Source of the DNA: a virus
Direction: 5' to 3' (one strand)
IMG/VR virus record: IMGVR_UViG_3300000228_000006
Span: 526-64,525 of that record
DNA: 64,000 bases
The position numbers and the translations under genes were made by a program. The notes beneath the pieces are model-generated. The model was not told the origin of the DNA and searched no databases. It worked only from the letters and a program-made list of their open reading frames with translations. Positions 5,131-52,797 of the stretch are shown here, piece after piece. The stretch's first letter is position 1, and each line of letters opens with the position of its first letter.

Positions 5131-5147
5131 AGTTAAATTTGTGATTA

Positions 5148-6199: not shown

Positions 6200-6733
6200 A
6201 TGGTATTTTCGAAAAGAAAAAAGAAAGTAGCTGAACCACAGCTGCCATTTTGAGCAAGTTCTCCAGCACAACTGGAAAAATATGTACCTCAAAAAACAAA
6301 TGGTAAAAAGAAAGTTAGGGCTATTAAATCTGAGGTAGATGGTATTAAATTTGATTCACAACTAGAAGTGTATTGTTATAATGCTTTAAATAATGCAGGA
6401 TTGCCTTTTGAATATGCACAGAAAACCTTTACAATTGTAGACGGGTTTAAATGCATTGGGGATAGTTATGAAGCTGATAAGCGTAAAGGGAAGGGTTTAT
6501 ATTTAAAATCTAAATCTTTACAATCAATTAAGTATACGCCAGATTTTATTATTAAAGGGAAATTTAATTATATAATAGAAACCAAAGGAATTGCTAATGA
6601 AACATTTGGAATGCGATGGAAACTATTTAAAAAATATTTATTTGATAATAATTTGTACTATGATTTATTTGTTCCACATAATCATGCACAAATAAATGAA
6701 TGTATAGAAACTATATTAAAAAAAGAAGCCTAA
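6200..6733 (+). CDS. PD-(D/E)XK endonuclease (DUF1064/resolvase-like), 177 aa, with one in-frame TGA
   Basis: ATG at 6200 is in frame with the track ORF; TGA at 6251-6253. The extension restores the motif VDGIKFDSQLE. Downstream motifs YTPDF and IIETKG. Confidence 0.8.
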
Positions 6734-6789
6734 TGAAAAACAATTGTGCAATTCATAAAAGAGGAAAAGAAAATTTTAATTAAAGAGTG

Positions 6790-6822
6790 AAAAGGATATT
6801 ACATTTTGTAATATCCTTTTTT
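6790..6822 (+). terminator. Rho-independent terminator-like hairpin
   Basis: AAAAGGATATTACA-ttt-TGTAATATCCTTTT followed by Ts. Confidence 0.7.
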
Positions 6823-6830
6823 AATGTAAT

Positions 6831-7055
6831 ATGAAAAAAGGAAAAATATATAAAGAAATAAATAGTACACATAATTTAGTTGTAATGTGTATACGCCCTT
6901 ATGTGGACACTTTTGAAGGTGTTATTATAGGAAGTAAACAACTTGACTTAATTGGTGTTTACTCTTCTTTATTTAATGTAAAAAAATTTACAGAGTATAT
7001 AGGGCCATTTAACATTAATAATGTTTTAATTGACTGTATAACTAATAATAATTAA
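6831..7055 (+). CDS. Hypothetical protein (74 aa)
   Basis: ATG to TAA, co-oriented. Confidence 0.6.
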   Translation: MKKGKIYKEINSTHNLVVMCIRPYVDTFEGVIIGSKQLDLIGVYSSLFNVKKFTEYIGPFNINNVLIDCITNNN

Positions 7056-7068
7056 TAATAAAAAATTA

Positions 7069-7566
7069 ATGAATAACTTACGAATTGGACTAGATATAGA
7101 TGATGTATTGGCAGGATTTTTTGATACGTATAAAAGAACATTTACAAAGCCAAAAGATATGGAAGATGTAAATATTACTAGAAATGTTGATAAATTAAAG
7201 AATAATAAACATTTTTGGACTACACTGCCAAAAATAAATAATATTGATTTTGTTCCAGCACTATATTGTACTAAACGAGTAAATAAAAAATGTTGGACAA
7301 AAGATTGGTTAGCAGCCAATCATTTTCCAGAAAGACCAGTGTACCAAATGTACTTTCAAAGAGGTAATAAAGCTACAATGATTAAAGGTAGGGTAGATGT
7401 ATTTATTGATGATTCTATAAGTAATTTTGTAAAAATGAATGCGAGTGGTGTACCATGTTTATTAATGGATGCTCCACACAATCAGGGTTTTGAAACTCCA
7501 TATCGTATTTATTCACTAACTTTAAAAGAAATTAAAGAAAAATACAATGGATTTAAGCAAATATAA
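7069..7566 (+). CDS. HAD-superfamily 5'(3')-deoxyribonucleotidase-like protein
   Basis: IGLDIDDVL (motif I) and FIDDS (motif IV). Confidence 0.8.
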   Translation: MNNLRIGLDIDDVLAGFFDTYKRTFTKPKDMEDVNITRNVDKLKNNKHFWTTLPKINNIDFVPALYCTKRVNKKCWTKDWLAANHFPERPVYQMYFQRGNKATMIKGRVDVFIDDSISNFVKMNASGVPCLLMDAPHNQGFETPYRIYSLTLKEIKEKYNGFKQI

Positions 7567-8638
7567 AATACAATTTTTAATAGAAACTGTAAGAAAAGAA
7601 GATATATCTGATGAAGTGTATTTTTCAAGTAAATATTCTACATATTCAAGTAATTCAAAACTTTCATATATAAATCCTGCACAAGAGGGTTCTCCAGAGA
7701 AATATAAAGCTGGTTTAAAGTCTGGATTTAATAGTTCTTTTGATTTAGGCAGTGCAGTTCATGCATTATTTTTACAATCAGAAAATTTTATTTTAAGTAA
7801 TTATGAAGAAAAACCAACTGCTAAACTTGGAGTATTCATTAATGAAATTTATAAAGCAAGAAAAAAGGAACATACTATTAAAGAATCTTTAGAAATCGCT
7901 TCTGATAAAGCTGATTATTATAAAGGTAAACTATCTGATAAAATTATTAAAACAGCAATTCAAAAAGGATTACCTTATTATATTGCCATGATGAATGATT
8001 TATATTTAGATGAATTTGGTAGAAATGTTATTGTTTTAAATAAAAAACAATTAGAGGAATGTAAATCTTGTATAAGTAATTTAAAAAGCAATGATAAAAT
8101 TTATCAAAACTTATTTATGCAAAATTTTTGGGATACTTGCGTCATAGCCAATGAAGAGGCCTTATTTATTGATGTATTAATTACATTGCCAGATAATCAA
8201 GAAGTAGTTATACCAATGAAGCTAAAATTAGATAATTATAGAATAGATCCTTCTGAAAAAGTAATTTATTTAAATGATTTAAAAACTAGTGGAAAAAATG
8301 TTAATTACTTTATGGGAGGCAATATCCCAGTATTCGATGAAAATCAAGAGAAAAGTGGGGAACAGTGGATTGATGGGAGCTTTCAAAAATATCACTATTA
8401 TAGACAAATTGCTTTTTATTTAGTGGTATTACAAATTTACTTACAAACTCAAGGATATGTAGGGTATACTTATAAAGCTAACATGGCTGTAGTACAAACC
8501 TTGCCAGAATACAATAGTAAATTATTTGAAGTCCCTGAAAAATATATAAAACTAGGAATGGAAGAATTCAAAGAATTGATTTGCAGAGTTGCATTTCATG
8601 AGATTAATGGATATGATGTTGAATTTACAAAAGATTAA
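7547..8638 (+). CDS. PD-(D/E)XK exonuclease (RecE/Cas4-like)
   Basis: LGSAVHAL, KLKLDNY, NDLKTS and YHYYRQIAFY motifs. Confidence 0.8.
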   Translation: MDLSKYKIQFLIETVRKEDISDEVYFSSKYSTYSSNSKLSYINPAQEGSPEKYKAGLKSGFNSSFDLGSAVHALFLQSENFILSNYEEKPTAKLGVFINEIYKARKKEHTIKESLEIASDKADYYKGKLSDKIIKTAIQKGLPYYIAMMNDLYLDEFGRNVIVLNKKQLEECKSCISNLKSNDKIYQNLFMQNFWDTCVIANEEALFIDVLITLPDNQEVVIPMKLKLDNYRIDPSEKVIYLNDLKTSGKNVNYFMGGNIPVFDENQEKSGEQWIDGSFQKYHYYRQIAFYLVVLQIYLQTQGYVGYTYKANMAVVQTLPEYNSKLFEVPEKYIKLGMEEFKELICRVAFHEINGYDVEFTKD

Positions 8639-8640
8639 AT

Positions 8641-9018
8641 ATGAACGATTATGTAAAAAAAGCAATTAATGATGCTGTATATGATGATAAACGTACTTTA
8701 TATTCATCATTTTTTTCATCTGGAACACAGACATCTGGTAAGATGAATAATAAATTAGAATTAATATCATTAATTTGCTTAGTCAGCCAAAAAATGTCTA
8801 TCGATAATAAAACTGTTACTACAAAAGATGTAATAGAAAAAATTGTTGGCCATGTATTAAATTATAATGACTCTTACGATCATTACCTAATTGGGTTAAG
8901 TATTGTTTGTGATGATATGATGGTTGGAGTTACTGAAATTGATTCATTTGGTTTAAAAACCTCTACGGAGATAATAAATAAGATAAAAAATATATTAGCC
9001 GAATGGCTTCCATTTTAA
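8641..9018 (+). CDS. Hypothetical protein (125 aa)
   Basis: ATG to TAA, tightly packed. Confidence 0.65.
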   Translation: MNDYVKKAINDAVYDDKRTLYSSFFSSGTQTSGKMNNKLELISLICLVSQKMSIDNKTVTTKDVIEKIVGHVLNYNDSYDHYLIGLSIVCDDMMVGVTEIDSFGLKTSTEIINKIKNILAEWLPF

Positions 9019-9020
9019 TT

Positions 9021-11343
9021 ATGAATAAAAATATAGTAATAATGAAAGAAGGAGATCTTGATATAAATGAATATATGTTACAAGATTTCTATGAAAATGA
9101 TGAAGAACCTATAATTAGTGAAGACTATAGTAATTGGATTGAAACAAAGGGAAACTATACTCCTGCAATCTCAATTACTGTCGTAAAAAAAATGCGAAAA
9201 GGTATTTATAAAGTAGGTATTGTAAATGATCAACTTACTTGTTTACCACAAGCTATTTCCTCTGATGGGCTGTGTCTATTACCAGATTCCACATCTCAAT
9301 TTATTTTAAATGAAACTGAAAAGTTTTGGGCAAGAGCAGAAGAGTTTAAAAAATATAATATGATTCATAAAAGAGGAATATTATTAGAGGGAAGTCCGGG
9401 GACAGGTAGACGATTATAAAGTTAAGATTGGATTAATGTTTTAAAAAAGTGCTAAATTATGGTTTTAATATAAATATTTTTTATTATCTTTGTAGATAAT
9501 AAAAAATAAAATATGGAAACATGATTAATAGAAGCAATAAGATTGCATGTAGAAAAGAGAGTATCGGTTAATAAAATAACCAAATTAGTTGGTAAAAGTC
9601 ACACCACAATCACTAAATATTTTAAAATTCATAATATTGAATTTAAAAATAATAATGAAAAAACAAGTGGAGAGTATTTAAAAGCTCTGGATTTATATAA
9701 AACAGGAGAGTTTAGTGTTACAGAACTATCAAACAAATTTAAAATTGATAGGCACGCTTTATCAAGAAGAATTAAAGCAATAGGACTGAATGTAGTAAAT
9801 AAACAAAACCTAATAAGGTTTAATGAAAATATTTTTGATGATATCGATACAGAAGAAAAGGCATATTGACTTGGTTTTCTATATGCTGATGGCTGTGTTT
9901 CCTCAATAAATAATACTATTGAGATATCTTTAAAATATTCTGATTTTAATCATTTATATAAATTTAAAAACTTTTTAAATTGCACTAATAATATAATAAT
10001 TGACACTATTAGGTGTAGATTAATGTTTAGTAGTGGTTATTTTAAAAAAAGACTAATCGAGTTAGGATGTACTCCTAGAAAATCTTTAACTTTAGAATTT
10101 CCAACAGAGGGACAAATGCCCGATCATTTAATTATACCTTTTATTAGGGGATATTTTGATGGTGATGGAACATTTACTTATTTTAGTAGGAATGGTAAAG
10201 GAACAGTGTTTACTCCTAAAATAGGATTTATAGGTACACAAGATTTTTTAAAAGGAGTACAAGATGTACTTTTAACTGATGCAAATCTACACCTAGCTAA
10301 TAAAAATGGGTCTAATAAATGCTTTGAAATTTCTTTTGGCTCTAAAAAATCTACTGAAATTTTAAAAAAGTTATATAAAGATGCTAATATTTACCTAGAC
10401 AGAAAATTTAAACGTTATACAATATTTAAAAATAATAATTTTGCCGTCCAAAGTAGTAATATTTTGGATTATGAGAAAGCAATATCGGAGGAGACTAAAG
10501 AATATTTAATTAAACAATATAAGTTAAATTTCAATGTTAACACCGAGATAAATAATGACAGTAAAAAATCATTATCATCGTAACGCATAGATACTGAACC
10601 TCTTAATTGAGAATACAATGTATCCACGAGTGCTTTCCACCCTACTGTTATTAGAGGGTGAAGATATATGCTAAGCTATCTGATGATTAAATCAGAATAT
10701 TTTATCTTGTAATTGGAAGATAAATAAGGAGGAAACTCCTAGAAGTAAAGGATAAAAAACCATTACGATAATAAAGCTGAAAAGCGTTACAATTACATTA
10801 TTAATCCAAGAACTCATTAAAAAAGACGGATTAATATTTTTAATTAATTCTGCCAGAGATTTTTCATTAATTTATGATTTCTATAAGAATACTTTAAGAA
10901 AAATTGAGCCAAACAGAAACATTATCACTGTAATAGAGGACATTGATAAACTTATTAATGATAATGTTGAGCCTGAATTTTTAGATTTTTTAGATGGTAA
11001 AATGAGTATTGACCACCATTTGGTGATTGCTACTACTAATGATTCTTCTGACCTTTCAGATGCAATTATTAGGCCCAGTAGAATGGATATGAGGGTAGTA
11101 ATTGATTATCCTACAAAAGCATCTCGTATGGAATTCTTTAAGTTTAAAGGAGTAGAAGAGTCTGATTTAGAAATGTTCGTAACTGCTTCTAAAAAATTCT
11201 CAATGTCCCAATTAAAAGAGCTTTTTATAGGAACTTATGTTTTAGGTAATGGATTTGATCAAGTTGTTGAACAAATTAAAAATCCATTAGTTAAACAACG
11301 ATATGATAGTTTTGTACACAATAAAACTATCATTGGATTTTAA
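9021..11343 (+). CDS. AAA+ ATPase split by a group I intron: join(9021..9407,10780..11343), about 316 aa
   Basis: Splicing restores Walker A GSPGTG|KS. Exon 2 has Walker B VIEDIDK, FLDG, ATTN and the Arg finger RPSRMD. Confidence 0.88.
9457..9492 (+). promoter_or_regulatory. Intron-internal promoter TTATGGTT-N20-TATCTTTG
   Basis: Bacteroidota -7 element TAnnTTTG at 9485-9492, 20 nt before the endonuclease ATG. Confidence 0.6.
9513..10583 (+). CDS. Double-motif LAGLIDADG homing endonuclease with N-terminal HTH-like region, 356 aa, two in-frame TGA
   Basis: TGA at 9522 and 9867 join two track ORFs. Motifs KAY(W)LGFLYADG and FIRGYFDGDG. Confidence 0.88.
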
Positions 11344-11413
11344 TTTACTAAAATAATACTTACACTCTATTTTATAAAAAAGTTTATTTCCTTTAAAAAT
11401 AAGTGTTAAAAAA

Positions 11414-11445
11414 TTTGGTAGATTGAAAAAAATGTTGTACCTTTG
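11414..11445 (+). promoter_or_regulatory. Bacteroidota primary-sigma promoter TTTG-N20-TACCTTTG
   Basis: Exact match to the -33/-7 consensus. Confidence 0.8.
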
Positions 11446-11551
11446 TATAACAAATGAGATAAAAATGTATTTTGTATTTTGATAATACAAAAAATATATA
11501 GATAGGAAACTACAAGATAAAAATTTATAAATAAAAAAATGTTAAGGAATT

Positions 11552-12139
11552 ATGAAAACAATTGAAGCACAAGGATTTACTAAAGCAGCCGCTTACGAAA
11601 CAACAGGATTAGATGTAGAATTTGCATTATTGAAAAATGCAACACAAAAATGGAAAAAAGAAGGTTCACCTATGAGTACCAAAGAACTAAATAAATTCAT
11701 GACTGAATATATGACTGCTAACAAAGCTGTTGGAGCGTTTATTGTAGTTGATGGATCGTCAAAAGACACTCGTCTTCGTCCATATTCTGTTATTAATGTA
11801 GTAACTGATGGTAAACGTAAATCAAAACGTGTGTATCAAATTAAAGAAGCTACATTTAAAACTAAAATTTCTACAATTCTTACAGAAGAAGGAGTAGAAG
11901 AAACAATTAAAGTTGTTGATCCAAAATCAGTAGTTTTAGGTGTTGTAGTTGGTCGTGAAGGTAAGAAAAGTGAAGCTGTTACAGCAGCTAAAAAACTTAC
12001 AACTGCTAACAAACGTGCATATGGTATTGAAATCGTGGAAGAAATCGTTGAAGGACAAAAATATGCAGCTTTTGTGGATTACACTCCATCAGAATCAGCT
12101 AAATTAGGTAAATTCATCTTTTTCAATAAAGAAGTCTAA
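11552..12139 (+). CDS. Hypothetical Lys/Thr/Val-rich protein (195 aa), apparently monocistronic
   Basis: Own promoter upstream and terminator downstream. Confidence 0.8.
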   Translation: MKTIEAQGFTKAAAYETTGLDVEFALLKNATQKWKKEGSPMSTKELNKFMTEYMTANKAVGAFIVVDGSSKDTRLRPYSVINVVTDGKRKSKRVYQIKEATFKTKISTILTEEGVEETIKVVDPKSVVLGVVVGREGKKSEAVTAAKKLTTANKRAYGIEIVEEIVEGQKYAAFVDYTPSESAKLGKFIFFNKEV

Positions 12140-12254
12140 AAATATCAAAATGAGGTTGTTTACTCCTCTTTAAATTAAACATCGAAACTCTACTAAATTT
12201 GAGTGGTATAATGAACCTAAATCATTCGTCAAATATTGACGTTAATCAAAAATT

Positions 12255-12290
12255 AAAGGTCAATAGATTAAATTCTATTGACCTTTTTTT
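12255..12290 (+). terminator. Rho-independent terminator
   Basis: AAAGGTCAATAGA-ttaaat-TCTATTGACCTTT followed by a T-tract. Confidence 0.85.
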
Positions 12291-12336
12291 ATTTAAATCC
12301 AATAATTAACGGAGTACAATCCATAAACAAAATTGA

Positions 12337-13908
12337 ATGAATAAAGAAAATAATGAAGTAACTGTAGAGGAAGTTAAAGTAGATTTAGCAAAAGTAGATC
12401 AAAGATATATTAAAAGAATTTGTAGTAATAATACTTTAACATTAGAAGATAAATTAAATATATTAGTTGAACATTTTAATCTAACAAAAGAAGTAGTTAC
12501 GGAATATGTTGAATCATTAGGGATGATTTTAACTCCTTCTCAATTTTCAGCAGCTAAATTACACACTTTAAAAAAGAAACAAAGATATATAATTACCAGT
12601 GCTCAAACAGCGTCTCCAATTAATGAAGACTTTCTTCATAATATTGAAGTTTATGCTAAACATATTGATGCAGAAATTGGTATTATAGCAACAAGATATA
12701 GAAATCCTACCTCTATTTGGGCAGAAGAAGGAGATGTCTGGGATGAAAGAACACATAAATACTTAACAGCTAACAGGCAATTATTACACAATGATTGTTT
12801 ACTTTTAGCAGATTTAAAAATACAAGCAACTAGCCCTAATCCTACCAATGGTATAGAATTATTTGGAGGACATGCATCTGTGATTGTGGGTAGTCCTAGA
12901 ATTGAAATGCGTAGTGTACCTGTGTTACCAAATCAGAAACAAAAATTCTTACATTCAACAGGGAGTGTAACTATCCCAAGTTTTACAGACTCAGTTGCTG
13001 GTGGAAAACAAGCTGAACATCATGCTTATGGATTTGTAGTAGTTGAAATAGAAAATGATGATGTAGTACATATTAGAAATGTTTCTGCTGATATATATGG
13101 TAATTTTAATGATTTAATATTCAGGGTTGATGAAAAAGGAGTTACAACTGAAACAGTAGAATGTTTAGTTTGGGGAGATTCTCATTTTGCTCAAAAAGAA
13201 GAACGTGTTACTTTAGCATTTAGAAAATTATGTTTAAATTTAGGAATTGAAATGTCTGTATTACATGATATTTGGGATTCTGAAAGTTTAAATGTACACA
13301 ATGTTAAGAATGGAGTTGTTCAACATCAATTAATGACTGCTGGTAAAGATGATTTACAAGCTGAGCTTGATCAAATGCATGGAGAATTAAAGTGGTTTGA
13401 ATCACACATGAATGAAACACTGATTATTGCTTCAAATCATGATGATATGTTAGATAGAGCTATGTGGCAAGGTGATTGGAGAGATAATTTAAAAAATGCA
13501 AAAGTATTTGTTGAAATGTTATCATTAACGTTGTCTGGTAATGCTCCATTAGGAGTAATCCCATACATTATTAATAGTACATATGATAATATTAAAGCCT
13601 TAGGAGTTAATGATTCATATATCCATCGTGATGTAGAATTAGCTCTTCATGGTCATAAAGGACCTAATGGTTCTAAAGGAAATATTAATAGCTTTTCTAA
13701 ATTATCAACTAAAACTATTATAGGACATAGTCATTCCCCACAAATAAGTGGAGGTTGTTATCAAGTTGGTATTTCTTGTCAAATGCAACATGGCTATAAT
13801 AAAGGTTTATCAGGTTGGGCATATAATGGAGTTACATTAAATAAACATGGTAAAAGACAATCAATTACTTTAAATAAAAATACATTAACTTACACAACAC
13901 TTTACTAA
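12337..13908 (+). CDS. Calcineurin-like metallophosphoesterase with N-terminal extension
   Basis: WGDSHF, LHDIWD, SNHDD, LHGH and IGHSH motifs. Confidence 0.8.
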   Translation: MNKENNEVTVEEVKVDLAKVDQRYIKRICSNNTLTLEDKLNILVEHFNLTKEVVTEYVESLGMILTPSQFSAAKLHTLKKKQRYIITSAQTASPINEDFLHNIEVYAKHIDAEIGIIATRYRNPTSIWAEEGDVWDERTHKYLTANRQLLHNDCLLLADLKIQATSPNPTNGIELFGGHASVIVGSPRIEMRSVPVLPNQKQKFLHSTGSVTIPSFTDSVAGGKQAEHHAYGFVVVEIENDDVVHIRNVSADIYGNFNDLIFRVDEKGVTTETVECLVWGDSHFAQKEERVTLAFRKLCLNLGIEMSVLHDIWDSESLNVHNVKNGVVQHQLMTAGKDDLQAELDQMHGELKWFESHMNETLIIASNHDDMLDRAMWQGDWRDNLKNAKVFVEMLSLTLSGNAPLGVIPYIINSTYDNIKALGVNDSYIHRDVELALHGHKGPNGSKGNINSFSKLSTKTIIGHSHSPQISGGCYQVGISCQMQHGYNKGLSGWAYNGVTLNKHGKRQSITLNKNTLTYTTLY

Positions 13909-13909
13909 C

Positions 13910-14278
13910 ATGTACATACGATTAGAAAAACAATATACAATTACTGTTCCCAAAATTAATAATGTCACAATTGAATTTGATTTTGAATCATATATTAAAA
14001 ATAATGGTATTAAAATTAACGATGAAAAAGATTTAAGGAAGGTAATTCAAGACTGGATTAATTATGATTGTAAAGAATTATATTATAATCAAGACGATTG
14101 GGATAATGACTTAATTAATGATGATTATGATGAAACTAATTTAATATTAAATATGGATGCCCTTGTAAAAGAACTTTTTCATTTAATACCACCAGTTAAT
14201 AATCCTCTTTGCGGTACTATAACTAAAAATAATAAATATAATTATTGCCCTACTTGTGGGGCTAAGTTAAACTATTAA
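13910..14278 (+). CDS. Hypothetical protein with C-terminal CPTCG (Zn-ribbon-like)
   Basis: C-terminal YNYCPTCGAKL. Confidence 0.65.
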   Translation: MYIRLEKQYTITVPKINNVTIEFDFESYIKNNGIKINDEKDLRKVIQDWINYDCKELYYNQDDWDNDLINDDYDETNLILNMDALVKELFHLIPPVNNPLCGTITKNNKYNYCPTCGAKLNY

Positions 14279-16552: not shown

Positions 16553-16813
16553 ATGAAAGAAATAATTAAAAAAATAATTGCTGGCGGACAAATATCACAA
16601 CCAGATATAGTTGAATTTATAACTAAAATAACGGATTTATTTGAAAAGCCTATACGATCCCCACAAGAACTTGAGGGAATTATACTAATGATACAAATGG
16701 GACAATTTGATATAATGTATGCAGTAAAGTTAGCTTGCATAAAATTAGATATACCATTGAGAATATTATATGATAAAAATGGCATAATTATTAAACAATA
16801 TATTCAAGAATAA
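16553..16813 (+). CDS. Hypothetical protein (86 aa)
   Basis: TAATG overlap with the next gene. Confidence 0.65.
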   Translation: MKEIIKKIIAGGQISQPDIVEFITKITDLFEKPIRSPQELEGIILMIQMGQFDIMYAVKLACIKLDIPLRILYDKNGIIIKQYIQE

Positions 16814-17106
16814 TGAGAATAATTAAATTAATATATAATAATGAGACAAAAACTGCAATAGACTTAGTAAGTAATATACCTAGAACTATTGTAGAATTGT
16901 ATAATTATGATAATTATAAAGATAAAAAGAAAGCAATTCCAATAATGACCCGACATGGGGCTAAAAAATTTCCTTTTATTGTTTTTGAAGATGAAAATCT
17001 TGAAGAATACACTGCATATTGGACAGAAAGTAAAAAAGAACTTACTTCAAAATTAATTGATGAGTTATTAAATGTTGAATTAACTACCAAGTTAATTAAG
17101 AATTAA
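16813..17106 (+). CDS. Possible thioredoxin/glutaredoxin-fold protein without CxxC
   Basis: GAKKFPFIVF resembles the cis-Pro loop; lies upstream of RNR; contains no Cys. Confidence 0.4.
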   Translation: MRIIKLIYNNETKTAIDLVSNIPRTIVELYNYDNYKDKKKAIPIMTRHGAKKFPFIVFEDENLEEYTAYWTESKKELTSKLIDELLNVELTTKLIKN

Positions 17107-17123
17107 ATGATGAATTGAAAGAT

Positions 17124-17154
17124 TTTGGTATGTTAGAATTTTTTTGTATCTTTG
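17124..17154 (+). promoter_or_regulatory. Bacteroidota primary-sigma promoter TTTG-N19-TATCTTTG
   Basis: Consensus -33/-7 elements upstream of RNR. Confidence 0.8.
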
Positions 17155-17220
17155 TATAAAATATGAAAAATTAAAATTTTATATTTTTTACAAAAATACA
17201 AAAATTATTAAAAATTAAAA

Positions 17221-20200
17221 ATGAGAGAAAGAAACGATTATTTTAAAAATGATGAACTTGCTAGACAAGTATGGGAAAGTAAGTATAAATTAGGAAATGA
17301 GACTTTATATGGATTCTTTGAACGAATTACATATGAATTTGCTAGATTAGATAACTTTTCATCAGCTGTAAACCTTGAAGAAAGTAAATTAAACGATTTA
17401 TCTAGTTATGGTAAAAGTATAATTGGAAGAGACCCTGCAGTTAAATTTAGGCAGTTATTTACCAATTTTAAATATATTATTCCAGGAGGATCAGTACTCG
17501 CTGGAGTTGGAAGTGATAAACCTGTAAGTTTATCAAATTGTTTTGTAATTAAAAATGGAGATTCAATATCTGAGATATTTGATGCAAGTAAAAATATGGC
17601 TCAAATCTATAAACGTAGAGGCGGTTGTATTGAAGAACATACTCCTGTTATTATAAAAAATAAAGGAAATATATCAATTAAAGATGTTGAAATTGGAGAT
17701 TATATTTTATCTTTTAATATAGTTACACTAAAAGATGAGTGGAAATTAATTAGGGATAAATATTACACAGAGGTGAGCTTAGAAGATCAAATAGAATTAA
17801 ATTATGTAAATGGGGTAAAATTAAAAACTTCTAAAAAACACCCAATACTTACTTTATCTAATACAGGGTATGATTTTATAAATGAAAAAAGTGGAAAATT
17901 ATTAAATACTACTAATAAATCCCCAAATTTAAGAGGATTTGAATATGAAAAAGTACACCAGTCTAATAATATTCAACTAACTGATGTAGAAATAGATTTT
18001 ATTACAAATTATAAATATTCTACTTTATTTCCTTCTACTAGTAAAGAATATCAACTATTAAAAACTAGCTCTTATGATTTAAATAAAAATAAAACGTGTG
18101 GAAAAGAGCACTTATCATTATTAAAAAATCATGGGATTATTACAGAAGAAAAGTATTTTGAAATACTGTCTAGGACAAAATTAGTTGAAATTACTGAGGA
18201 TAATTCTGAAAAATTAAATTATATTGATATATCAGTTGAAGAAAATAATAATTACTACGCTGGAACATTTGGATTTGTAAATATTCATAATTGTGGAGTT
18301 GATCTTGGAGAACTCCGTCCTGCAAGTGCAAATGTTAATAATGCAGCTAAAACAACTGGTGGTGTAGTTCCTTTTATGGAGTTATTCTCACAAGTAACTA
18401 ATACAATTGGACAAAATGGACGTAGAGGTGCATTAATGCTTTCAATTGATATTAATCATCCAGATTCTCCCGATTTTATTAATAGTAAACAAGATTTATC
18501 TAAAATTACAGGTGCTAATATATCTGTAAAATTGAATGATGAATTTATGAACGCTGTTGAAAAAAATGAAGATTATTGGTTACAATGGCCTACTAATTAT
18601 GATATTTCTGGATTTATTAATCAAGAAACTCCTTATAACCAATTGATAAATCATGAAGTTTATAATGAAGATGGATCAATAAATTTAGTTTATATTAAAA
18701 AAATTAGAGCTAAAGAATTATGGGATTCTGTTATTCAATGTGCTTGGAATACAGCAGAACCAGGGATTTTATTCTGGGATAATATCTTAGATAATGATCC
18801 GGCAAGTGTCTATCCTGAATTTAAAGCAGTATCTACAAATCCTTGTGGTGAAATACCATTATCTCCTTATGATTCATGTAGATTAATAGCAAGTAATGTA
18901 TATAATTTAGTAGAGGATAAATTTAAACCTACAGCCACTATTAATGAAGCATTGGCTTATGAAGTGTTTTATGAAGCCCAAATTATTGGAGATATTCTAG
19001 TTGATTTAGAAGCTGAGTATGTACAAAAAATTATTGATATTACTGATGGAGATGAAAAAGGACTATGGGAAAAAATTAAAGAAATTGGTTTAAAAGGTAG
19101 ACGTACTGGTGTAGGTCTTACTGGGTATGCTGATATGTGTGCTGCATTAGGAAAGAATTATGGAGATGAAAAATTAACTGATTATATTATGAAGTTAAAA
19201 ATGAGAGCTGAACTTGATGCAACTATTGACTTAGCTATTATTAATGAACCTTTTCCCTCTTATAATAGAGATTTAGAGTTTAGTAATTCTCAAGAAACAG
19301 ATGAAAACTTAATAGTGGGAAAGAATGCTTGGTATAACTTTTTAATTAAAAAATATCCAGAACAATTCCAAAAAATGTTACAATATGGGCGTCGTAATGT
19401 AAGTTTTTCTACAATTGCTCCGACTGGGACCATAAGTATGCTTGCAGCTACTTCGTCAGGTTGTGAACCAACATTCTCTTTATATTATAAACGTAGAAAA
19501 AAATGTAATCCAGGAGAGAAAGCTGATTTTACCGATCAAAATGGCGTTAATTATACCGAACATAATGTAGTTCACGGTAGTTTTAAAAAGTGGTATGAAG
19601 AATTAGGTTGGTTACTAATAAATGGAAATGCAGATATTTTAACACTTAGTACTGAGGAACTTGATAAAGCTTTTAGATTGTCCCCTTGGTTTAATAATAT
19701 AGCAAATGATATTGAGCCATCTTGCAGAGTTAAAACTCAAGCAATTATGCAACAATATATCACTCATAGTATATCAAGTACTATAAATTTACCGCCTGAT
19801 ACAACTCAAAAAGTTATTAATTTAATTTATAAAGATGCATGGGAACAAGGACTTAAAGGAGTCACTGTTTATCGTGATGGTTGTCGTAGTGGTATTTTAG
19901 TAAGTCATAAAGAAGAAGAAAAGCCAATTATTACAGAGCGTCCTTTTGAATTAGAATGCAAAGTGGTTCAATTTAAAAATGAGAAAAAAGATTGGATTGC
20001 TTTTGTAGGAATTTTAAATGGAATACCTTATGAAATATTTACAGGTCCAAAAGATTTAGATACTTTTCCAATTCCATCTTCTGTAGTTGAAGGTATTATT
20101 ATTAAAGTTAAAAATGATGATGAGCCCTCAAGGTATGATTTTAGATATGTAGATAGTTATGGTTATACTAACACTCTGGGAGGATTATCCCGTATTTTTG

Positions 20201-20472
20201 ATAAAGAGTATTGGAATTATGCTAGATTAATGTCTGCATTATTAAGAGAACAAGTATCTCCAGAAAAAATGATTACAATTATCGAAGGATTAAATTTCTC
20301 TAATAAAAGTATGACTAATTGGAAAAGTGGCGTAATACGCTCTTTTAAACCATTTGTTCAAGATGGTACTAAATCGCATGGAGAGAAATGCAGTGAGTGT
20401 GGACAAGAAACAATAGTTTATGAAGCAGGTTGTAAAATATGTAAAAATTGCGGAAATAGCCGTTGTAGCTAA
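17221..20472 (+). CDS. nrdJ: Class II (B12-dependent) ribonucleotide reductase containing an intein
   Basis: SLSNCFV, NPCGEIPL, TIAPTGTISML, KGVTVYRDG and a C-terminal Cys ribbon; no nrdB nearby. Confidence 0.88.
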   Translation: MRERNDYFKNDELARQVWESKYKLGNETLYGFFERITYEFARLDNFSSAVNLEESKLNDLSSYGKSIIGRDPAVKFRQLFTNFKYIIPGGSVLAGVGSDKPVSLSNCFVIKNGDSISEIFDASKNMAQIYKRRGGCIEEHTPVIIKNKGNISIKDVEIGDYILSFNIVTLKDEWKLIRDKYYTEVSLEDQIELNYVNGVKLKTSKKHPILTLSNTGYDFINEKSGKLLNTTNKSPNLRGFEYEKVHQSNNIQLTDVEIDFITNYKYSTLFPSTSKEYQLLKTSSYDLNKNKTCGKEHLSLLKNHGIITEEKYFEILSRTKLVEITEDNSEKLNYIDISVEENNNYYAGTFGFVNIHNCGVDLGELRPASANVNNAAKTTGGVVPFMELFSQVTNTIGQNGRRGALMLSIDINHPDSPDFINSKQDLSKITGANISVKLNDEFMNAVEKNEDYWLQWPTNYDISGFINQETPYNQLINHEVYNEDGSINLVYIKKIRAKELWDSVIQCAWNTAEPGILFWDNILDNDPASVYPEFKAVSTNPCGEIPLSPYDSCRLIASNVYNLVEDKFKPTATINEALAYEVFYEAQIIGDILVDLEAEYVQKIIDITDGDEKGLWEKIKEIGLKGRRTGVGLTGYADMCAALGKNYGDEKLTDYIMKLKMRAELDATIDLAIINEPFPSYNRDLEFSNSQETDENLIVGKNAWYNFLIKKYPEQFQKMLQYGRRNVSFSTIAPTGTISMLAATSSGCEPTFSLYYKRRKKCNPGEKADFTDQNGVNYTEHNVVHGSFKKWYEELGWLLINGNADILTLSTEELDKAFRLSPWFNNIANDIEPSCRVKTQAIMQQYITHSISSTINLPPDTTQKVINLIYKDAWEQGLKGVTVYRDGCRSGILVSHKEEEKPIITERPFELECKVVQFKNEKKDWIAFVGILNGIPYEIFTGPKDLDTFPIPSSVVEGIIIKVKNDDEPSRYDFRYVDSYGYTNTLGGLSRIFDKEYWNYARLMSALLREQVSPEKMITIIEGLNFSNKSMTNWKSGVIRSFKPFVQDGTKSHGEKCSECGQETIVYEAGCKICKNCGNSRCS
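17626..18291 (+). mobile_element. Mini-intein (222 aa) in NrdJ
   Basis: RRGG|CIEEHTPV...KTSKKHPIL...YIDISVEENNNYYA...IHN|CGVD; no LAGLIDADG motif seen. Confidence 0.88.
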
Positions 20473-22660: not shown

Positions 22661-22900
22661 ATGTTAAAAAAATTAACTTGTGATGTATTAGCTTCCATAG
22701 ATGTTTATATAGAAATACCTGAACATCTAATAGAAACTTTTGAGAAGTATAATGAATATATCAGTTTAGAGCCAAAATCTAACCCTGATAAAGATAATTG
22801 TGAAGAAATTTATGAATTAATAAATGATAGTATCTATAATAATATGGATGATCTTTTTTGGGAAACAATTGAAATTGTAAATGAGGAGGATATAGAATAA
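22661..22900 (+). CDS. Hypothetical acidic protein (79 aa)
   Basis: Tightly packed ORF. Confidence 0.6.
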   Translation: MLKKLTCDVLASIDVYIEIPEHLIETFEKYNEYISLEPKSNPDKDNCEEIYELINDSIYNNMDDLFWETIEIVNEEDIE

Positions 22901-22902
22901 TA

Positions 22903-33092: not shown

Positions 33093-36000
33093 TTATTTAC
33101 ATTTTATTGTTATTATTAACGCATTTTCTTTAATATATTTAATAATATTTTGTATATTAAGGTATCGTTGTTTGTCTACTGATATTGGATCTAAAGTAGT
33201 ATTTACTACATAGTCTGTATTTATAATCCTTAAAAGCTTTTTAGCTCCTGTTAATGGATCTTTTACATATAATTGTCCACCTTTATGAAAAGTATAAAAT
33301 ACAATATCATTTTTCATAGCTTGCTCAGCTTGAGTTAGTGTTTTTATCTCTTCTTTTGTCTTAATTGGTTTATTTAATACTTCTTTATTATCATCTGTAT
33401 AATCGAATAAATCAATTTCACCAGAGTCTATTTTACTAGAAAAATGTAAATAATTATTACCTACAGTATTTGGCTCTTTAATATAATCTTCAAAAATTGG
33501 TGTCAGTCTTAAATCTCCATATGATTCATTATTTACAACTAAATTATAAACATAAAATAAATCTCGTCAACTCATATCTACTCCCTGAACATTTTGTAAT
33601 TTTTTCTTATTAAGGTCTAATTCATTAAATTCACTTAATAAATTTTGAAACTTATCTAAATTTACTGGATTATTTAATTGAGACATACTAAATGCAGAAA
33701 CAATAGCACTCATTCTTGAGCCATAAGCAGTTCTTAAACTACGAATAGTTAATGATTCCATAAATTTAGGATTATAGTCAGCTTTCTTTAAGATTGGAAC
33801 AATTAACTCTTCCATTATTTTTTTAAAGTTTGCTATTCCGTGATCTGTATCTAAAGTTACTAATAAATTATTATCTCCTTTTACAGTAATAATCTCAACA
33901 CTATCCTTACTAATTTTAGAATTAGCATTATATAATACGATTTCTTCTTCTCCTGCTAATTTTAATAATTCTTTCACGTCAAAACTAATATTTGAAGGGG
34001 ATGTTTTATCATTTGAGTCTTTGGATTGTGCTCATTTACCAACTAAAAACTTATCAAAAGCTAGTAAAGCCTTTGATAAAGCTATATCATTAATTTTAAG
34101 AGGTAATGCCCTATTTCCCATTTGATGTTTTAAATTTTCATTTAAAGTTTGTAACTCATCCGTTTTTTCTCTAGCTATACTTCTAAGATAATCAAATGCA
34201 AAGTTATACTTTTTTGATAACTTATTTAGTATATTATGAGATATTTTTACTCCATCAATCATAGCTTTAAAATGTGGCACTGATTCAATTACATCAAATA
34301 CATTAACTGTATCTTTTAACAGGTTATAATAATCTGCAGTAACTTTTCTGTAAGTGTCATTCTCATCCTTAATATATTCCCTAAAATCAAATTGACCTCC
34401 TAAAATTTTATATTTTACAGCATTATTTAATACTTCAATAATCTTAGATTCACTAACAGTTTTATTATTTTTTTTAATCAGTTTTATAAACTTTTTATCT
34501 GCTTCAGAGTTATTTCCAAAATCTCTTAAATAGATTAAATCATTTCCAAAAATTGCATGTTCTCTGGCAAACATAGTTGTTTCTAAATTGGTTAAAAACT
34601 TATTTAACTCTTTAATATTTGCAGATGTTTTTTGATTTACTTTTAAAAATCCAGATAACATTCTAAATTCTTGAGCTCCACTATACATAGATTTAAATGT
34701 AGCTAAGTCTGGACTAATACCATTAGCTTTTTCATAAGTTTGTAAAATCGTCGCTACAAACACACTATCATTTCCGTCAGACTCTAAAAATAAATTAGTT
34801 TCTAAACTTTTAGCTATATCTATCGCAACTTTGGAGTTCATAAATTTAGCAATGGTATTTTTATCAATACCAAGAGATAACATATATAAATGCATTGATG
34901 CTAATTCAACAGAGGCATTCAATTTAGCCATAGCTAATTCTTTTGCATTATCAGTTGCAAGTGATGTAAATCCGGACATTGCAATAGCAGCTTGACTTTT
35001 AAATACATCTAACTTTTGCTCGCCTTTAGATATAAACTGTTCTAATTGAGTTATTTGATGTTTTCTAATTCTTACATCAGATAAAGTTGAAATATTATAA
35101 CTCGTTTCTTCCATCACAAATTGCTTATTAAACAACTTATAATCATTGTCTACCACAGTATAATCTGGATCACTATAATGGTTATTATAATATGAAGTTA
35201 ATGCAAAATAAACTTTTAGGCCATTAGCTGCAATACCTACATCATCTTTACCAACAGAGGCATCTTTTTGTTGTTGCATTATGCTTATGTGGTCTAAACT
35301 TGATAATAAAAATTGAACTCCACCCTTTGCTTTTAATCCTTCACTTGCTGCATTTTGCCAATCTTCTACCTCTACAGGTTCATTTGCAATTAAATAATTA
35401 CTTGGAGCTGATATAATATTTTTAATTCTACTAATTACTGAATTATTTATTGCACTTTTCTTGTATAAATAATCTGTTGATAAATTATAATCATTAATTA
35501 ATTTTATAAAATCTTTTGTAAATTTCGAATATAATGGATTATTTCCTAAATTTATATGTAATGATTGGGATTTATTAATTTTTAATAGTATATCTCTTAA
35601 TTTATTAATAGAATCTACTGAAAAATTTGAGTTAATTGTAAAATAAGGCACTTTTTCTCCTTTCAAATCTTGAACTATACTACCTCAAACTTCTTCCATA
35701 GAATCTATAGTGTCATTATCTACACTATCAATAAATGCTTCAAATTCATCAGATAAATCTATACTATCAGCTATACCAGCTGGAGTATATAAAGCTTTAG
35801 GAGTAATAATTTTCTGTCCTCTCGTCTTTCCTTTTGTAATTCTATTATTTGGAAATGGCAATGTTTCTATAGCATTAAGTACTTCTTTTGAATTATAATT
35901 TAAAGGTGCTCACGAATCATATTGTCCATTTTTATCAAAGCCATATCCCATTATATATGCTTTATCAATATCAAAGTCAGAACCTTGCAACCAAAGTTGT

Positions 36001-39000
36001 CATGTTGATACATAAGCATCATTACCAGAAGCACTATTGTTATTATAGCCAACATTTCTCATTTCCATAAAAGATTGCATAGATTGAGCTGGAATACGGG
36101 CAGCTACAAATTCATGTGATTTTTCCCAAGAAATTCTTTTATTTAATGCCATTTTATTAATTATATCATCCTTGATTTTATTAAAGTCATCATGCAAAGT
36201 ATCTTGTCTAAAATTAGATAAATCAATAGTAATACCACTAAATTTGGAAAATTCTTTTAATGTTATTTTATGAATACTAGAATCAATTAATCCCCTACCC
36301 AATAAATTACCTTCTTTATCAAATCTCTCAACATACTCTTTAAAAACACTATTCATTGTTGGAATAATAGCATCTATTTTTCCATTAAATGATTTAATTA
36401 GTTGTTTAATCGTATCATTTAATCCTTCTTCTATTATATGATATTCTGTAACTACTTTACTTAAATGTTTAGATGCAGCTTTTATATATAAGGTTTCTTT
36501 CCCACTATCATCAACAATGACTTTAGAATTTTCTGGCAAAATATACATTTTATTACCTAATTCATCTAATCTAATCTTTACAGTTTTTAATTCACCATCA
36601 ATCTCTTCTCTGTCAGTTATAATAGAAACTTTACTATTAGATGAAGGTAAATCCACAACATATTTTACATATATTTTCGGGTTGTTATCTCCTAATGAAA
36701 TGATGAAATCAGAATTATCATCAGTTAACTCAAATTGTTTTTGTAATTTATCTACAAAATAATTTGGGTTATTTCTAATAGTTGTAATTGAATCCATATT
36801 GGTTTCAAAATCACTTTTATAAATATTTGGCAGAATTAGTTCTGCTGGTTTAAATTTATAATTAGTTACATTAATAGTTCTGCCATTGTATAAATGTTTT
36901 GCGTCTTCAAAAATATTCTTTATTAAGGCATCCCCATTAAAATAAGTTTTAAAATCTGTATTTATATCAACAGGTATCATTATTAAATGATTATCTAATA
37001 GTTGAAGATTTCGTTGAGTTCATGCATTTAATAAATTATCTGCCTTTTTAAAAGCTTTTTGTGCTTCTTCATTTTTCTTATCTCGTACCTCTTCTATTAA
37101 TTTCAAAGGAATCTTGTTTGCCTTCATAAAGTTACGTAGTATCAGATAATCACTATCAGTTTTATCGATAGATCCCTCTTTGAATTTATTTAAAATATAT
37201 CTCAATCGAATAGAGTCAGTATCAAATATATTTTTAGCTTCATAGATTGATAAATTTGTTTCTTCATCTAATCCTGTTGTAATTTCAAAAGTAATTTCAG
37301 AAGGCTTTAAATCTCTTGGAACAGAGAATGATTTCATAACAGTTTGACCTGCAAACTCTTTTTTAAACTTATAATATTTTTCAATAGTATCAAGAGTATG
37401 TGTAGTTTTTAAATCTAATCCATCTACATTTAATACTATATCATAGCTATCACCAGGCTGTATTTCACTGGCATCTACAGGTTTAGATTGGTAAGTTTTT
37501 TCTAAATATTGTTTAATTATCTCTTCATTACTACTATTAGGGTTATACATAATAGTATTTAATTGATAATCTGCAAAAGCAGCTTTAGCTAAATCTTCTT
37601 GTTTAATAATATTTCCATTTGAATCTTCAAACAGTTTTATAATCCCATGAGAGGGGTTTAAGACTGCCCCAATTCCTCTGTAGTATCTTGTAATAAACTC
37701 ATCATTCATTCTTGATATTACATCTTTAACAAATGCCTGAAAGAAATTTTGATTACTAAATGGCACTTGTAGATCTTTTGGCAATGATTCTAATATATTC
37801 TTAGCTAAACTAACATTATCTGATTTACTCATTTTATCAATGAATTTTCTAGCCATATAGTTATATAAATCATCAGTTTTATTCCCTAAATATTTTTTAT
37901 AAGGAGCAGCAGCTTTTTTAATAGTACTAGCTAAATTTTCATAGACTTCTTGAGCTAAATGAGCAGTATTTCCATTTTGAGCTAAAGCTGAGACTACCTG
38001 AGTTACTTCTTTAATCTCAGATGCATCTGCTTCATGTCCAGCATCTAGCTGTGGCCCCATATGTCTATTTTCATAAGTAGTAAACATTAATTTATCTTTA
38101 GATTTTCACAAATCATTAGAATTTATATTTGTACCACCTGCTTTAATGGATGACTTATTAGATATGATATGAATCATTTGTTCTTTTAAATCATTATTAA
38201 CAACTATATTAAATAATTCTTCATTAGAACCTTCATTGAATTCCCCATTAACACCCATTGAATATTCTCCACCTAATGCTTCCCATACTTCATATAGAGT
38301 ATTAGCTGGTTTAACAACTTTATTTAATAAGTCATTATTATAAATTATATAAATTTTATTGTCCTTAATAAGATAAGAAGTAATTTGTTTATTAATACCA
38401 CTATCCATCACAAATAAATTGTCTGGAGTTAGTGGGGTAGTTTTAAGTCCATCTAAATTAAATGCACTAAACATTTGGTATTGTTTATTTTTATAGCTAA
38501 TTTCTGAATGATTAGAGTTTCTAATAATATCATTAGTAACTACAGTTTCTGCATCTTTTTTAACAACACAAGAGTAATCTGTAATAAAAGTACCAAATTG
38601 TTTTTTAGTTCCTTTATAGCTTTTTCCTGGATATGAATTTTCAACTAACTTACTATATACATAATTGATAGTCGAACTGCCATCATGTACTTCTTGATTG
38701 TTTTTAGTTTGTCCTGCAATATTATACATCTGAGCAGTTAAATCCTCAATTACTGCCAAATTAACATTATTCGGAGTACCATTTTTTTGATTTCTAGAAG
38801 GCAATTCAATTGTTGCAGTAAATATTACATTACGTTTAGCCATACTAGCTAATCTGCCACTCATTTCAATAGCTAAATCATCAAAATTTATAGAGGGCTT
38901 ATCTCCTCTATAGTTTAATTTAGCTTTATGTGGATGCATATATTCTCCTTTTGCAGAAATATATAAGTATTCATTTTTAAATAAATTGCTCATCCACATC

Positions 39001-50919: not shown

Positions 50920-52797
50920 TTATTCTATTAATTTTTTTGCATTTGCACTTACTGGTTTATTTCCAGTCATATTTGGGTCTTCTTGTAAATTTCTTTGAAT
51001 GTCTGCAATACCTGCAGCTGGCCCATATAAATGTGAGTTAATTGCAGCTATTTGTGCTGAAGCATCTGGTCTATATGCTATATATGTCATTCCAGCTAGT
51101 GGTCTTTCTAATGATAAAGTTCCTTTTGGAATTACTTTTTTAATAATTGGTTTAGCTGTAGTTCCTGAAGTAAATGTCCAGGCTTGTTCCATTAAATTTG
51201 TAGCTATATCTGCATTATCTCCAATTAATCTAACTAAATTTTTATTATCTGCAAATTCTGTAGCTGAGTTAGTTAATGTAGGAATTGCTAAAAATGGTTT
51301 AACATATTTATTATCTCTAATAACTTTAGTAATTTTACCATCTTTGCCAGGGATAGCATCTATATAAATATTAAAACCAGCGTCATGGAATCTTTTTTCT
51401 GCTACTTTAATGGACTCTTTATCTTTATTTGCTTCATAAACTGCCATTAAATCCTTAAATTCTTGCATACTTTCAAAATCAGGTAAACCTCCATCTTTAA
51501 CTGGTAAAAGTACCTGTGCTACATCCTGTCCATTGTAGACTAAATTTTGTAATTGAATTGGATTAATTTTTATATCCCCTAAATAGGCTTTATTAATATC
51601 TAATAAAATACCCAAACCACCTTGAGTTAAAGCATTAGCCACTGTAGAAACTCCAATTTGTTCATTATTTTTTAAATTTAGCAATGGCCCAATAGACGAA
51701 GCATGAATTGACATTTTTGTTCCTTTATTATTATTAATGTCATAGTTATTGCCAGTTATGTTTAATTTACCTGAATGGAATAATTCTGTAGGGGATAAAG
51801 CTATATTTTTAACTGCCTCTCCATTTTTTCCAGTTCTATTTCCATCAGTATCTTTAACTTCTGAAATACTTACATCTGATTCTGGAGCATAACTTGCAGT
51901 TAATAATTCTTTAATAATGGTTTTTGAATCTTCTTTGCCTTCCATTATTGTTATGAGTTCTAATTTTCTTTGGGCAGACTCTCCTAATGTAGACCATATA
52001 TAATTTAATGCAGTAGTTAAGTCTTTTTGTTTACTGCTAGATGTAATTTTATAAGAGCCATCAGCAGTTATACTAGATAATGCATCTAATTCTTTTTGAG
52101 TTGGCTTTCTACTTCCTGTAATTTTAGCTATTTCACTTGACATGTCCTTAGTTGCATAAAAATCTGTACTATCAGATGCTAACTTAACCATTGATACAAT
52201 AGATTGCACATGGTCACTAATTTTATTCATGCCAATAGAAGTGTTAGCTACTTCAAAAACTCCATTCTGTCCTGTTAATTGTGCTTCAAAATTCCTAGCA
52301 TTTAAAAGTTCAGATACAGTTAATAATTTAACCTTACCTTTATTTTCTTTATAAGTATTTAAACTAATAGCTTGTATTTGCCCATCTCCTCTACGAGTGT
52401 AAACCTCATTATTAGTACCAATTGCAGTTTCTCCATATCCACCTGTTTTTTCTGAAGTTGCAACAGCAGAATCCCAAGCTTTCTTATTTTCCATTAATTG
52501 ATTTACTTTAGCAATTTGTTGTAAATAATTAATCATTGGCTTAGCCCCAAATGTATTTGAAGCTCCAAAATAATCTTGTTGTAATGTAGTCATTTTAGTA
52601 GCAAAATCATTTACGTCATTTACTAATCCAGCTCCCATTAATTTTTCATAAATTTTATCATTCATAACACCCTCTTCACCAGATTTCTCTGATGAAGATG
52701 CTTGTGTTGATGTTGATGTTGATTGTTGTGGTGCTGGATTAATATAAGGAGTAAAAGTTATTCCTCCACCTCCTGCCAATTTTAATGTATATTTCAT
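50920..52797 (-). CDS. Putative virion cargo protein E (625 aa, no TGA)
   Basis: Intact ORF; stop 1 nt before gene D; starts MKYTLKLAGGGG. Confidence 0.8.
   Translation of the reverse strand: MKYTLKLAGGGGITFTPYINPAPQQSTSTSTQASSSEKSGEEGVMNDKIYEKLMGAGLVNDVNDFATKMTTLQQDYFGASNTFGAKPMINYLQQIAKVNQLMENKKAWDSAVATSEKTGGYGETAIGTNNEVYTRRGDGQIQAISLNTYKENKGKVKLLTVSELLNARNFEAQLTGQNGVFEVANTSIGMNKISDHVQSIVSMVKLASDSTDFYATKDMSSEIAKITGSRKPTQKELDALSSITADGSYKITSSSKQKDLTTALNYIWSTLGESAQRKLELITIMEGKEDSKTIIKELLTASYAPESDVSISEVKDTDGNRTGKNGEAVKNIALSPTELFHSGKLNITGNNYDINNNKGTKMSIHASSIGPLLNLKNNEQIGVSTVANALTQGGLGILLDINKAYLGDIKINPIQLQNLVYNGQDVAQVLLPVKDGGLPDFESMQEFKDLMAVYEANKDKESIKVAEKRFHDAGFNIYIDAIPGKDGKITKVIRDNKYVKPFLAIPTLTNSATEFADNKNLVRLIGDNADIATNLMEQAWTFTSGTTAKPIIKKVIPKGTLSLERPLAGMTYIAYRPDASAQIAAINSHLYGPAAGIADIQRNLQEDPNMTGNKPVSANAKKLIE

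Follow-up and report, generated by a model that had tools for sequence, protein, structure and literature searches.

When can a homing endonuclease be made if its reading frame lies in an intron of an early gene and is closed in the standard genetic code? This question is raised by the gene for an AAA ATPase in a 64,000-nucleotide (nt) stretch of viral DNA (positions 526 to 64,525 of the IMG/VR record IMGVR_UViG_3300000228_000006), which is called the window below. The gene is split by an intron that carries a LAGLIDADG homing endonuclease gene with two in-frame TGA codons. The window is part of a single viral contig of 75,878 base pairs (bp) with a G+C content (GC) of 27.8%, which belongs to a gut phage. 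We propose, with a probability of roughly 0.6, that this is a mobile group I-type intron whose nuclease gene was recoded after the intron entered the phage lineage, and that the full protein would be possible only once UGA is read as tryptophan (Trp). An earlier note on the sequence had proposed control of an endonuclease through the genetic code, an idea that Borges et al. (2021, bioRxiv 10.1101/2021.08.26.457843) had already put forward for Agate phages. The central idea is thus available in principle, and what is new here is this case and the anatomy added to it.

The intron and its ribozyme core

The limits of the intron were obtained from a sister genome, the IMG/VR contig G001 (78,398 bp, a relative of about 85% identity), in which the ATPase gene is uninterrupted and the intron is exactly absent. 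Positions 6784-8644 of the G001 locus L011 align with window positions 7546-9408, and positions 8644-11770 align with 10780-13912. Since the alignment jumps from 9407/9408 to 10780, the intron is placed at 9408-10779.

9003..9407, plus strand: exon 1 of the AAA ATPase gene, ending in GSPGTG (last codon GGT), with no TGA and two TGG; aligns to the uninterrupted G001 gene up to 9407/9408
9408..10779, plus strand: intron of 1372 nt, preceded by U and with G as its last base
10780..11343, plus strand: exon 2 of the AAA ATPase gene, starting with KSVTI (Pfam AAA, E=1.8e-7), 92% identical to G001, with no TGA

The intron splits the Walker A codons at GGT/AAA, between the Gly and Lys codons, and the intronless junction in G001 reads ggtacaggt/aaaagt. 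This junction (L011 8610-8680) is the candidate homing target, and its cleavage is a prediction. Precise insertion, a 5' exon that ends in U and an intron that ends in G are all found here, as in group I introns.

Rfam gave no group I match (RF00028), either in the window at the gathering score or in 9300-10900 at E-values up to 10, so the structure was derived from seven related introns. The same model does match another intron, that of the Sak4 gene in G001, with 118 bits at L011 1818-2043; this intron is absent from the window (3463/3467). The alignment, named A2, covers the 3' parts of the window intron and of six related introns (three close relatives, cr6_1, MT835539 and Lak-A1), and was folded with RNAalifold. 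The following parts, all on the plus strand, were found.

10475..10779: ribozyme core
10475-80 with 10632-37: P3
10485-88 with 10543-46: P4-like helix
10547-59 with 10568-79: P6
10585-89 with 10667-71: P7, forming a pseudoknot with P3
10590-94 with 10620-24: extra hairpin
10638-42 with 10656-60: P8
10676-78 with 10740-42: base of P9
10745-51 with 10760-66: last hairpin, followed by the terminal G at 10779

The A2 structure has 49 pairs, with 99.1% of cells paired and compensatory changes in 27 pairs. None of 500 shuffles was as good, and alignments that had been slid were 34-43% paired. The order of the helices (P3, P4-P6, P7, P3', P8, P7') with the P3/P7 pseudoknot is the topology of the group I core. 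By core topology and covariation, the intron is of group I type, and self-splicing is predicted. Inspection by eye for a P1 guide sequence gave a weak 4-bp candidate (GUUU with ...AGGU) and nothing convincing.

The endonuclease gene and its two TGA codons

The endonuclease frame ends within the ribozyme core: P3-P6 (10475-10579) overlap its last 36 codons, and P7 begins two bases past its stop codon. Its parts are as follows.

9513..10583, plus strand: LAGLIDADG homing endonuclease gene (P0001), 356 codons with TGA read as Trp, ATG at 9513 and TAA at the end
9522..9524, plus strand: TGA codon 4 (Trp); TGG in the relatives L006, L007, L008 and L009
9867..9869, plus strand: TGA codon 119 (Trp of AYW-LGFLYADG); every homologue examined has TGG here, as do 19 viral contigs
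9870..9893, plus strand: LAGLIDADG motif 1, LGFLYADG, residues 120-127, from the translation
10140..10169, plus strand: LAGLIDADG motif 2, FIRGYFDGDG, residues 210-219, from the translation; Pfam match at residues 210-254

The frame is open only with read-through of TGA and has no internal TAA, TAG or frameshift; in the standard code its product would be Met-Glu-Thr-stop. The earlier note had reported these features, namely TGA at codon 4 (9522) and before motif 1 (9867), a 3-residue product in the standard code and ATPase exons free of TGA, and all of them hold with their coordinates. Both TGAs are also present in an independent assembly, L010, and thus are not sequencing errors.

The protein matches Pfam LAGLIDADG_3 (PF14528) with E=3e-9 and PHROG 4645 ('endonuclease') with E=8e-57. 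Helix-turn-helix repeats at its N-terminus are followed by a nuclease core with two motifs. Both motifs end in an acidic residue and lie in one chain, as in monomeric LAGLIDADG enzymes, and cleavage activity is predicted. Its N-terminus, METWLIEAIRLH, is common to 80-81% identical proteins of other metagenomes, which have TGG at both Trp sites; since the relatives share this N-terminus, the ATG at 9513 is taken as the start. The ratio of nonsynonymous to synonymous substitution rates (dN/dS) against the relatives is 0.23-0.25 at a dS of about 0.4. From a dN/dS of 0.24, and from relatives of 80% protein identity in which both codons are TGG, the gene is judged to be functional, with TGA read as Trp. 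In this respect the suggestion that the endonuclease has adopted the recoded Trp was right: in this functional gene, each TGA stands at a conserved Trp site that was formerly TGG.

A search of viral contigs for loci related to the endonuclease gave no match, and the relatives were found by protein search and a DNA pattern. The read-through survey of the 19 contigs over-counts stops outside true frames, and was used only for the motif-1 codon and for picking the locus L045, which is described below. The contigs with the TGG version are at most 5 kb long and have replication-side genes only.

Use of TGA in the phage genome

The plus-strand block of the window up to about 22,900 consists of replication genes, that is, helicases, Sak4, primase, exonuclease, ribonucleotide reductase and ligase. 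In the minus-strand block from 25092 on, reading TGA as Trp gives very long genes with many in-frame TGAs. Apparent TGAs of the primase and ligase (5139-5147 and 22858-22902) lie 5' of the true ATG and are an artefact of TTG starts set by the open reading frame caller; both genes are free of TGA, and codons were counted after these TGAs had been removed. The ratio of TGA to TGG is 0/73 in the replication genes (n=24) and 68/50 in the late block, where 58% of Trp codons are thus TGA. The same contrast was found in G001, in which replication genes are TGA-free and late genes have in-frame TGA. Such a distribution, with TGA at conserved Trp sites of late genes and none in replication genes, is that of a phage that switches its code.

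Besides the endonuclease gene, real TGAs on the plus strand are found only in the genes for a DUF1064 resolvase-like nuclease and for the lysin, both of which have late functions.

6200-6733, plus strand: DUF1064 resolvase-like gene, with an in-frame TGA at codon 18 that is kept in G001 (where a second TGA is found at codon 121)

The DUF1064 gene is the sole TGA-bearing gene in the helicase-primase run, and the lysin gene has three TGA and no TGG. The endonuclease gene (2/0) differs from the replication genes (Fisher p=3.6e-4) and not from the late genes (p=0.51).

Some minus-strand genes in or beside the recoded block are TGA-free or TGA-poor (window 50920-52797, and 69752-75645 of G000, the window's own contig), and they gave no PHROG match. 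A PHROG search of the late proteins left most of them without a match.

Mobility of the intron and age of the TGA codons

Phages that share only 66-70% identity in the flanking genes have 82-85% identity in the intron with its endonuclease gene. In a more distant relative (L024:640-1950), the exonuclease gene that corresponds to window 7547-8638 is split by an intron with a DUF723 frame. Since this intron has the 3' ribozyme core of the ATPase-intron family, that phage carries a second intron of the kind. By these sequence comparisons, the element passes from one lineage to another, and it gained its TGAs recently. This contradicts the long co-adaptation of the mobile element to the phage that the earlier note had read from the TGAs: in relatives of 80-81% protein identity both codons are still TGG, and the intron is mobile.

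Upstream signals and a proposed order of events

Two elements were found in the leader of the endonuclease gene.

9457..9492, plus strand: promoter-like element, composed of TTATGGTT (9457-9464), 20 nt and the Bacteroidota-type -7 box TATCTTTG (9485-9492)
9475..9508, plus strand: 15-bp leader hairpin (9475-9489 with 9494-9508), with the -7 box inside it and 4 nt between its end and the ATG

The -7 box (TAnnTTTG) at 9485-9492 sits 21 nt before the ATG. Comparable boxes are found in front of the genes for the reductase and the lysin, the first helicase gene, the gene at 11552 and a gene in the virion block. The longer pattern TTATRGTT-N20-TAnnTTTG is present in front of the genes for the endonuclease and the lysin and of a 197-codon gene at 58051. 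These three matches compare with 0.11 expected in the window, and they are also the sites from which the pattern was defined. Its upstream half is altered in G001 (TCATAGTT, TTATACAT) and in the endonuclease relatives (TTATGTTT), and the related intron of L045 has a canonical TTTG at 20 nt instead. The -7 box is kept in the TGG-bearing relatives, and thus predates the TGAs. A late-type promoter had been proposed for this site. A promoter-like element is indeed present at 9457-9492, whereas the designation 'late-type' is not supported, given the three self-defining sites, the upstream half that is not conserved and the canonical box of L045.

At -13.6 kcal/mol (z=-4.5), the fold of 9470-9530 is better than all 200 shuffles. 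A related hairpin is found in L006 and L007 (z about -3), and in cr6_1 the start codon is folded into a stem (z=-2.9). The folds of the leaders in L045, MT835539 and Lak-A1 are no better than shuffles. It is predicted that read-through transcripts can form the hairpin, whereas transcripts that start a few bases past the box would lack its 5' arm. Elsewhere in the window, a long AU-rich hairpin lies before the reductase gene (17141-17204, -19.7 kcal/mol, z=-4.2), and it holds two divergent -7 boxes, at 17147 on the plus strand and at 17198 on the minus strand.

The proposed order of events is as follows. After entry of the intron into this lineage, both Trp codons of the endonuclease would have changed from TGG to TGA. 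In a cell that still terminates at UGA, ribosomes would stop after three endonuclease codons, and full nuclease would be made only once UGA is read as Trp, alongside the lysin, the resolvase and the virion proteins. It is plausible that the endonuclease is translated in step with the code switch. Termination at codon 4 may have another effect: by analogy with I-TevI of phage T4, it would keep ribosomes off P3-P6 in the end of the frame and so allow the ATPase mRNA to splice. Early termination probably also shields the ribozyme from ribosomes. The leader hairpin before the ATG would be a second, T4-like layer of delay. Transcripts from the putative internal promoter would start in the 3' arm of the hairpin and could not form it, by which the block may be released.

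In a stronger version, the nuclease would be held back in three ways at once: by a promoter whose non-canonical upstream box recurs only before the lysin gene and one gene of the virion block, by a hairpin that covers the start on read-through RNA, and by two UGAs, of which that at codon 4 was selected to spare P3-P6. We regard this version as doubtful. If it is true, stop-codon recoding would protect the splicing of an essential replication gene, beyond timing the nuclease.

Selected or tolerated recoding

Whether the recoding was selected can be judged from other endonuclease genes, both recoded and unrecoded.

G002 (L045; complete 173-kb genome with terminal repeats): endonuclease homologue of 38% identity, nine TGA versus one TGG; neighbours 0 versus 15, p=5e-6
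Lak-A1 (TAG read as glutamine, Gln): member of the endonuclease family, six TAG versus one CAA/CAG
G001, L011:1266-1871: GIY-YIG gene in the Sak4 intron (L011:1249-2095), two TGA versus no TGG
cr6_1 (TAG-recoded): orthologue at the same insertion site, no TAG among nine Gln codons; in its late genes TAG makes up 33% of Gln codons
G001, L011:16645-17646: LAGLIDADG gene in the second of two reductase insertions, no TGA versus three TGG
G001: LAGLIDADG gene in the giant late gene, no TGA versus one TGG
Own genome past the window, L017:9015-10112 (G000 73015-74112), minus strand: GIY-YIG gene (PHROG 314, E=1e-21) within the minus-strand block, no TGA versus four TGG

In L045 (872-2171), the same intron family occupies the GSG/K Walker A codons of a different AAA ATPase. 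Three of the five endonuclease genes in this genome and G001 have no TGA (TGA/TGG 2/0, 2/0, 0/4, 0/3 and 0/1). Recoding of endonucleases is frequent and sometimes extreme, and it is not obligatory. The pattern thus recurs in L045, Lak-A1 and the GIY-YIG gene of G001, and not in cr6_1 or in the three TGA-free genes.

Several further insertions distinguish these genomes. The reductase gene is uninterrupted in the window (17221-20472) and has two insertions in G001 (L011:15517-16121 and 16578-17777). The 2924-codon late gene of the window (33093-41867) is split in G001 by an insertion (L015:1363-2154); the giant late protein gave no match in G002, cr6_1 or MT835492. In cr6_1 (NC_055894), gp44 and gp42, annotated as 'non-ATPase regulatory subunit' and 'ATPase', are two exons of one gene (L002:4613-6572), which is split at GTG/K by the intron that bears gp43; the annotated start of exon 2 differs from the splice junction.

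The best surviving alternative is that the TGAs are a neutral by-product. In an AT-rich phage with late decoding of UGA, genes that are not required early, the endonuclease gene among them, would lose TGG to TGA by drift, with no selection and no regulation of consequence. The patchiness described above is what this alternative expects: TGA use by endonucleases is all-or-none and varies from gene to gene within the two sister genomes, the orthologue in TAG-recoded cr6_1 is unrecoded, close relatives keep TGG, and 81-88% of twofold purine codons end in A genome-wide. Synonymous change on the branch to this endonuclease speaks for more than drift, since both TGG codons (2/2) became TGA while only one of 11 comparable G-ending twofold codons became A-ending (hypergeometric p of about 0.04). 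The shares in L045 (9/10) and Lak-A1 (6/7) are also above the measured late-gene averages (58% TGA here, 33% TAG in cr6_1), and in Agate phages the family is significantly TGA-biased (Borges et al.). We consider the neutral alternative unlikely, yet it has to be taken seriously. Even if it applied, the consequence would stand that no full-length protein is made before the switch.

Some of these observations, together with others, weigh against recoding as a timing device. The codon-choice argument is borne by only two Trp codons. The orthologue of cr6_1, the LAGLIDADG gene in the reductase insertion of G001 and the GIY-YIG gene of the phage's own genome are unrecoded endonucleases in the same situation, so an endonuclease of this kind need not be gated by the code. 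As its TGG-bearing close relatives show, the intron family also works without TGA. In addition, a tRNA search of the window's contig and G001 found no tRNA of any kind, suppressor tRNAs included, in two contigs that CheckV rates as 43-45% complete. Because the window's contig represents about 43% of the genome, a suppressor tRNA may lie off the contig. Of the TGA-recoded genomes studied by Borges et al. (bioRxiv 10.1101/2021.08.26.457843), only 35% have suppressor tRNAs. In G002, ARAGORN found no tRNA with a UCA anticodon in the 16 loci scanned, which take in almost all of the genome's 24 Rfam tRNA matches; a tRNA-like gene of G002 (L067:1500-1571) has an abnormal anticodon loop.

If the host itself read TGA as Trp (code 4), there would be no switch, and the endonuclease would be translated whenever it is transcribed. 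The very low GC of 27.8% and the lack of a suppressor tRNA on the contig would fit such a host, but the contig is under half a genome. The contrast between replication genes (no TGA in 73 Trp codons of 24 genes) and late genes (58%) would hardly be expected if TGA could be read at all times. Furthermore, the TAnnTTTG boxes, the best matches of an A1-like protein and several genes whose nearest relatives are in phages of Bacteroidota suggest a standard-code Bacteroidota host. A code-4 host was thus rejected as very improbable.

Although the frame is broken at codon 4 in the standard code and homing endonuclease genes are known to decay after fixation, a decaying pseudogene in which both TGAs are nonsense mutations is hardly credible and was rejected, since 356 codons at 28% GC have no TAA, TAG or frameshift, all motifs are intact, dN/dS is 0.24, and the only stops are TGAs at conserved Trp sites, of which the late genes have 68.

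Relation to known systems and significance

Recoding of the endonuclease after entry of the intron, which we prefer to these alternatives, is closest to the case of Agate phages. In these TGA-recoded phages, the endonuclease of a group I intron in an early gene prefers TGA (p=1.3e-3), and it was argued that in-frame stops should block production of the endonuclease until late (Borges et al. 2021, bioRxiv 10.1101/2021.08.26.457843). Both cases have an intron-borne endonuclease inside a standard-code early gene with TGA preferred to TGG. They differ in that only two codons, recently changed, are concerned here. The Agate clade is set by terminase phylogeny, whereas no terminase gene was found on the window's contig or on G001, both of which are fragments (CheckV 43-45% complete). 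The promoter-like box, the leader hairpin and the overlap of frame and ribozyme are added here beyond the Agate account.

The parallel with T4 introns that the earlier note had drawn is closer than it claimed, as the hairpin that encloses the promoter-like box reaches almost to the start codon. Splicing of the T4 td intron is described as efficient only when translation of I-TevI is delayed (Gibb and Edgell 2010, as cited in PMC3073962, ref. B59; review PMC2988022). According to these sources, the td intron has a promoter within it and a start-site hairpin that is formed only on read-through transcripts, a layout to which the promoter-like box and the predicted hairpin here correspond. The rationale would be the same, namely that translation of the frame disturbs folding of the ribozyme. 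As described there, I-TevI is a GIY-YIG enzyme with T4 late promoters, whereas here a LAGLIDADG enzyme follows a putative Bacteroidota-type -7 box. The T4 hairpin covers the Shine-Dalgarno site by the same account, whereas the hairpin here stops 4 nt before the ATG, and the stop-codon lock is extra.

In crAss-like phages, group I introns have been reported for the Delta group within ATP_43b, an ATPase gene, and introns whose frames contain TGA codons for the Zeta group (Yutin et al. 2021, PMC7886860). The ATP_43b intron of cr6_1 (NC_055894 gp44-gp43-gp42) resembles the present one in its insertion at GTG/K of Walker A, in its ribozyme family (A2) and in its homologous endonuclease (42% identity). 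It differs in that cr6_1 recodes TAG and not TGA, in that no TAG is found among the nine Gln codons of its endonuclease, and in its ATPase, which is only distantly similar.

In conclusion, this locus opens no new kind of mechanism, and it provides a clean and well-delimited case for the published proposal that recoded stop codons time phage gene expression, with an intronless allele, TGG-bearing relatives and a mapped ribozyme. The overlap of frame and ribozyme lets it address whether recoding protects splicing, and the recoded and unrecoded endonucleases of sister genomes let it address whether recoding is selected or tolerated. It also shows that the Walker A codons of phage ATPase genes have been invaded again and again by a single intron family, in both TGA- and TAG-recoding phages.

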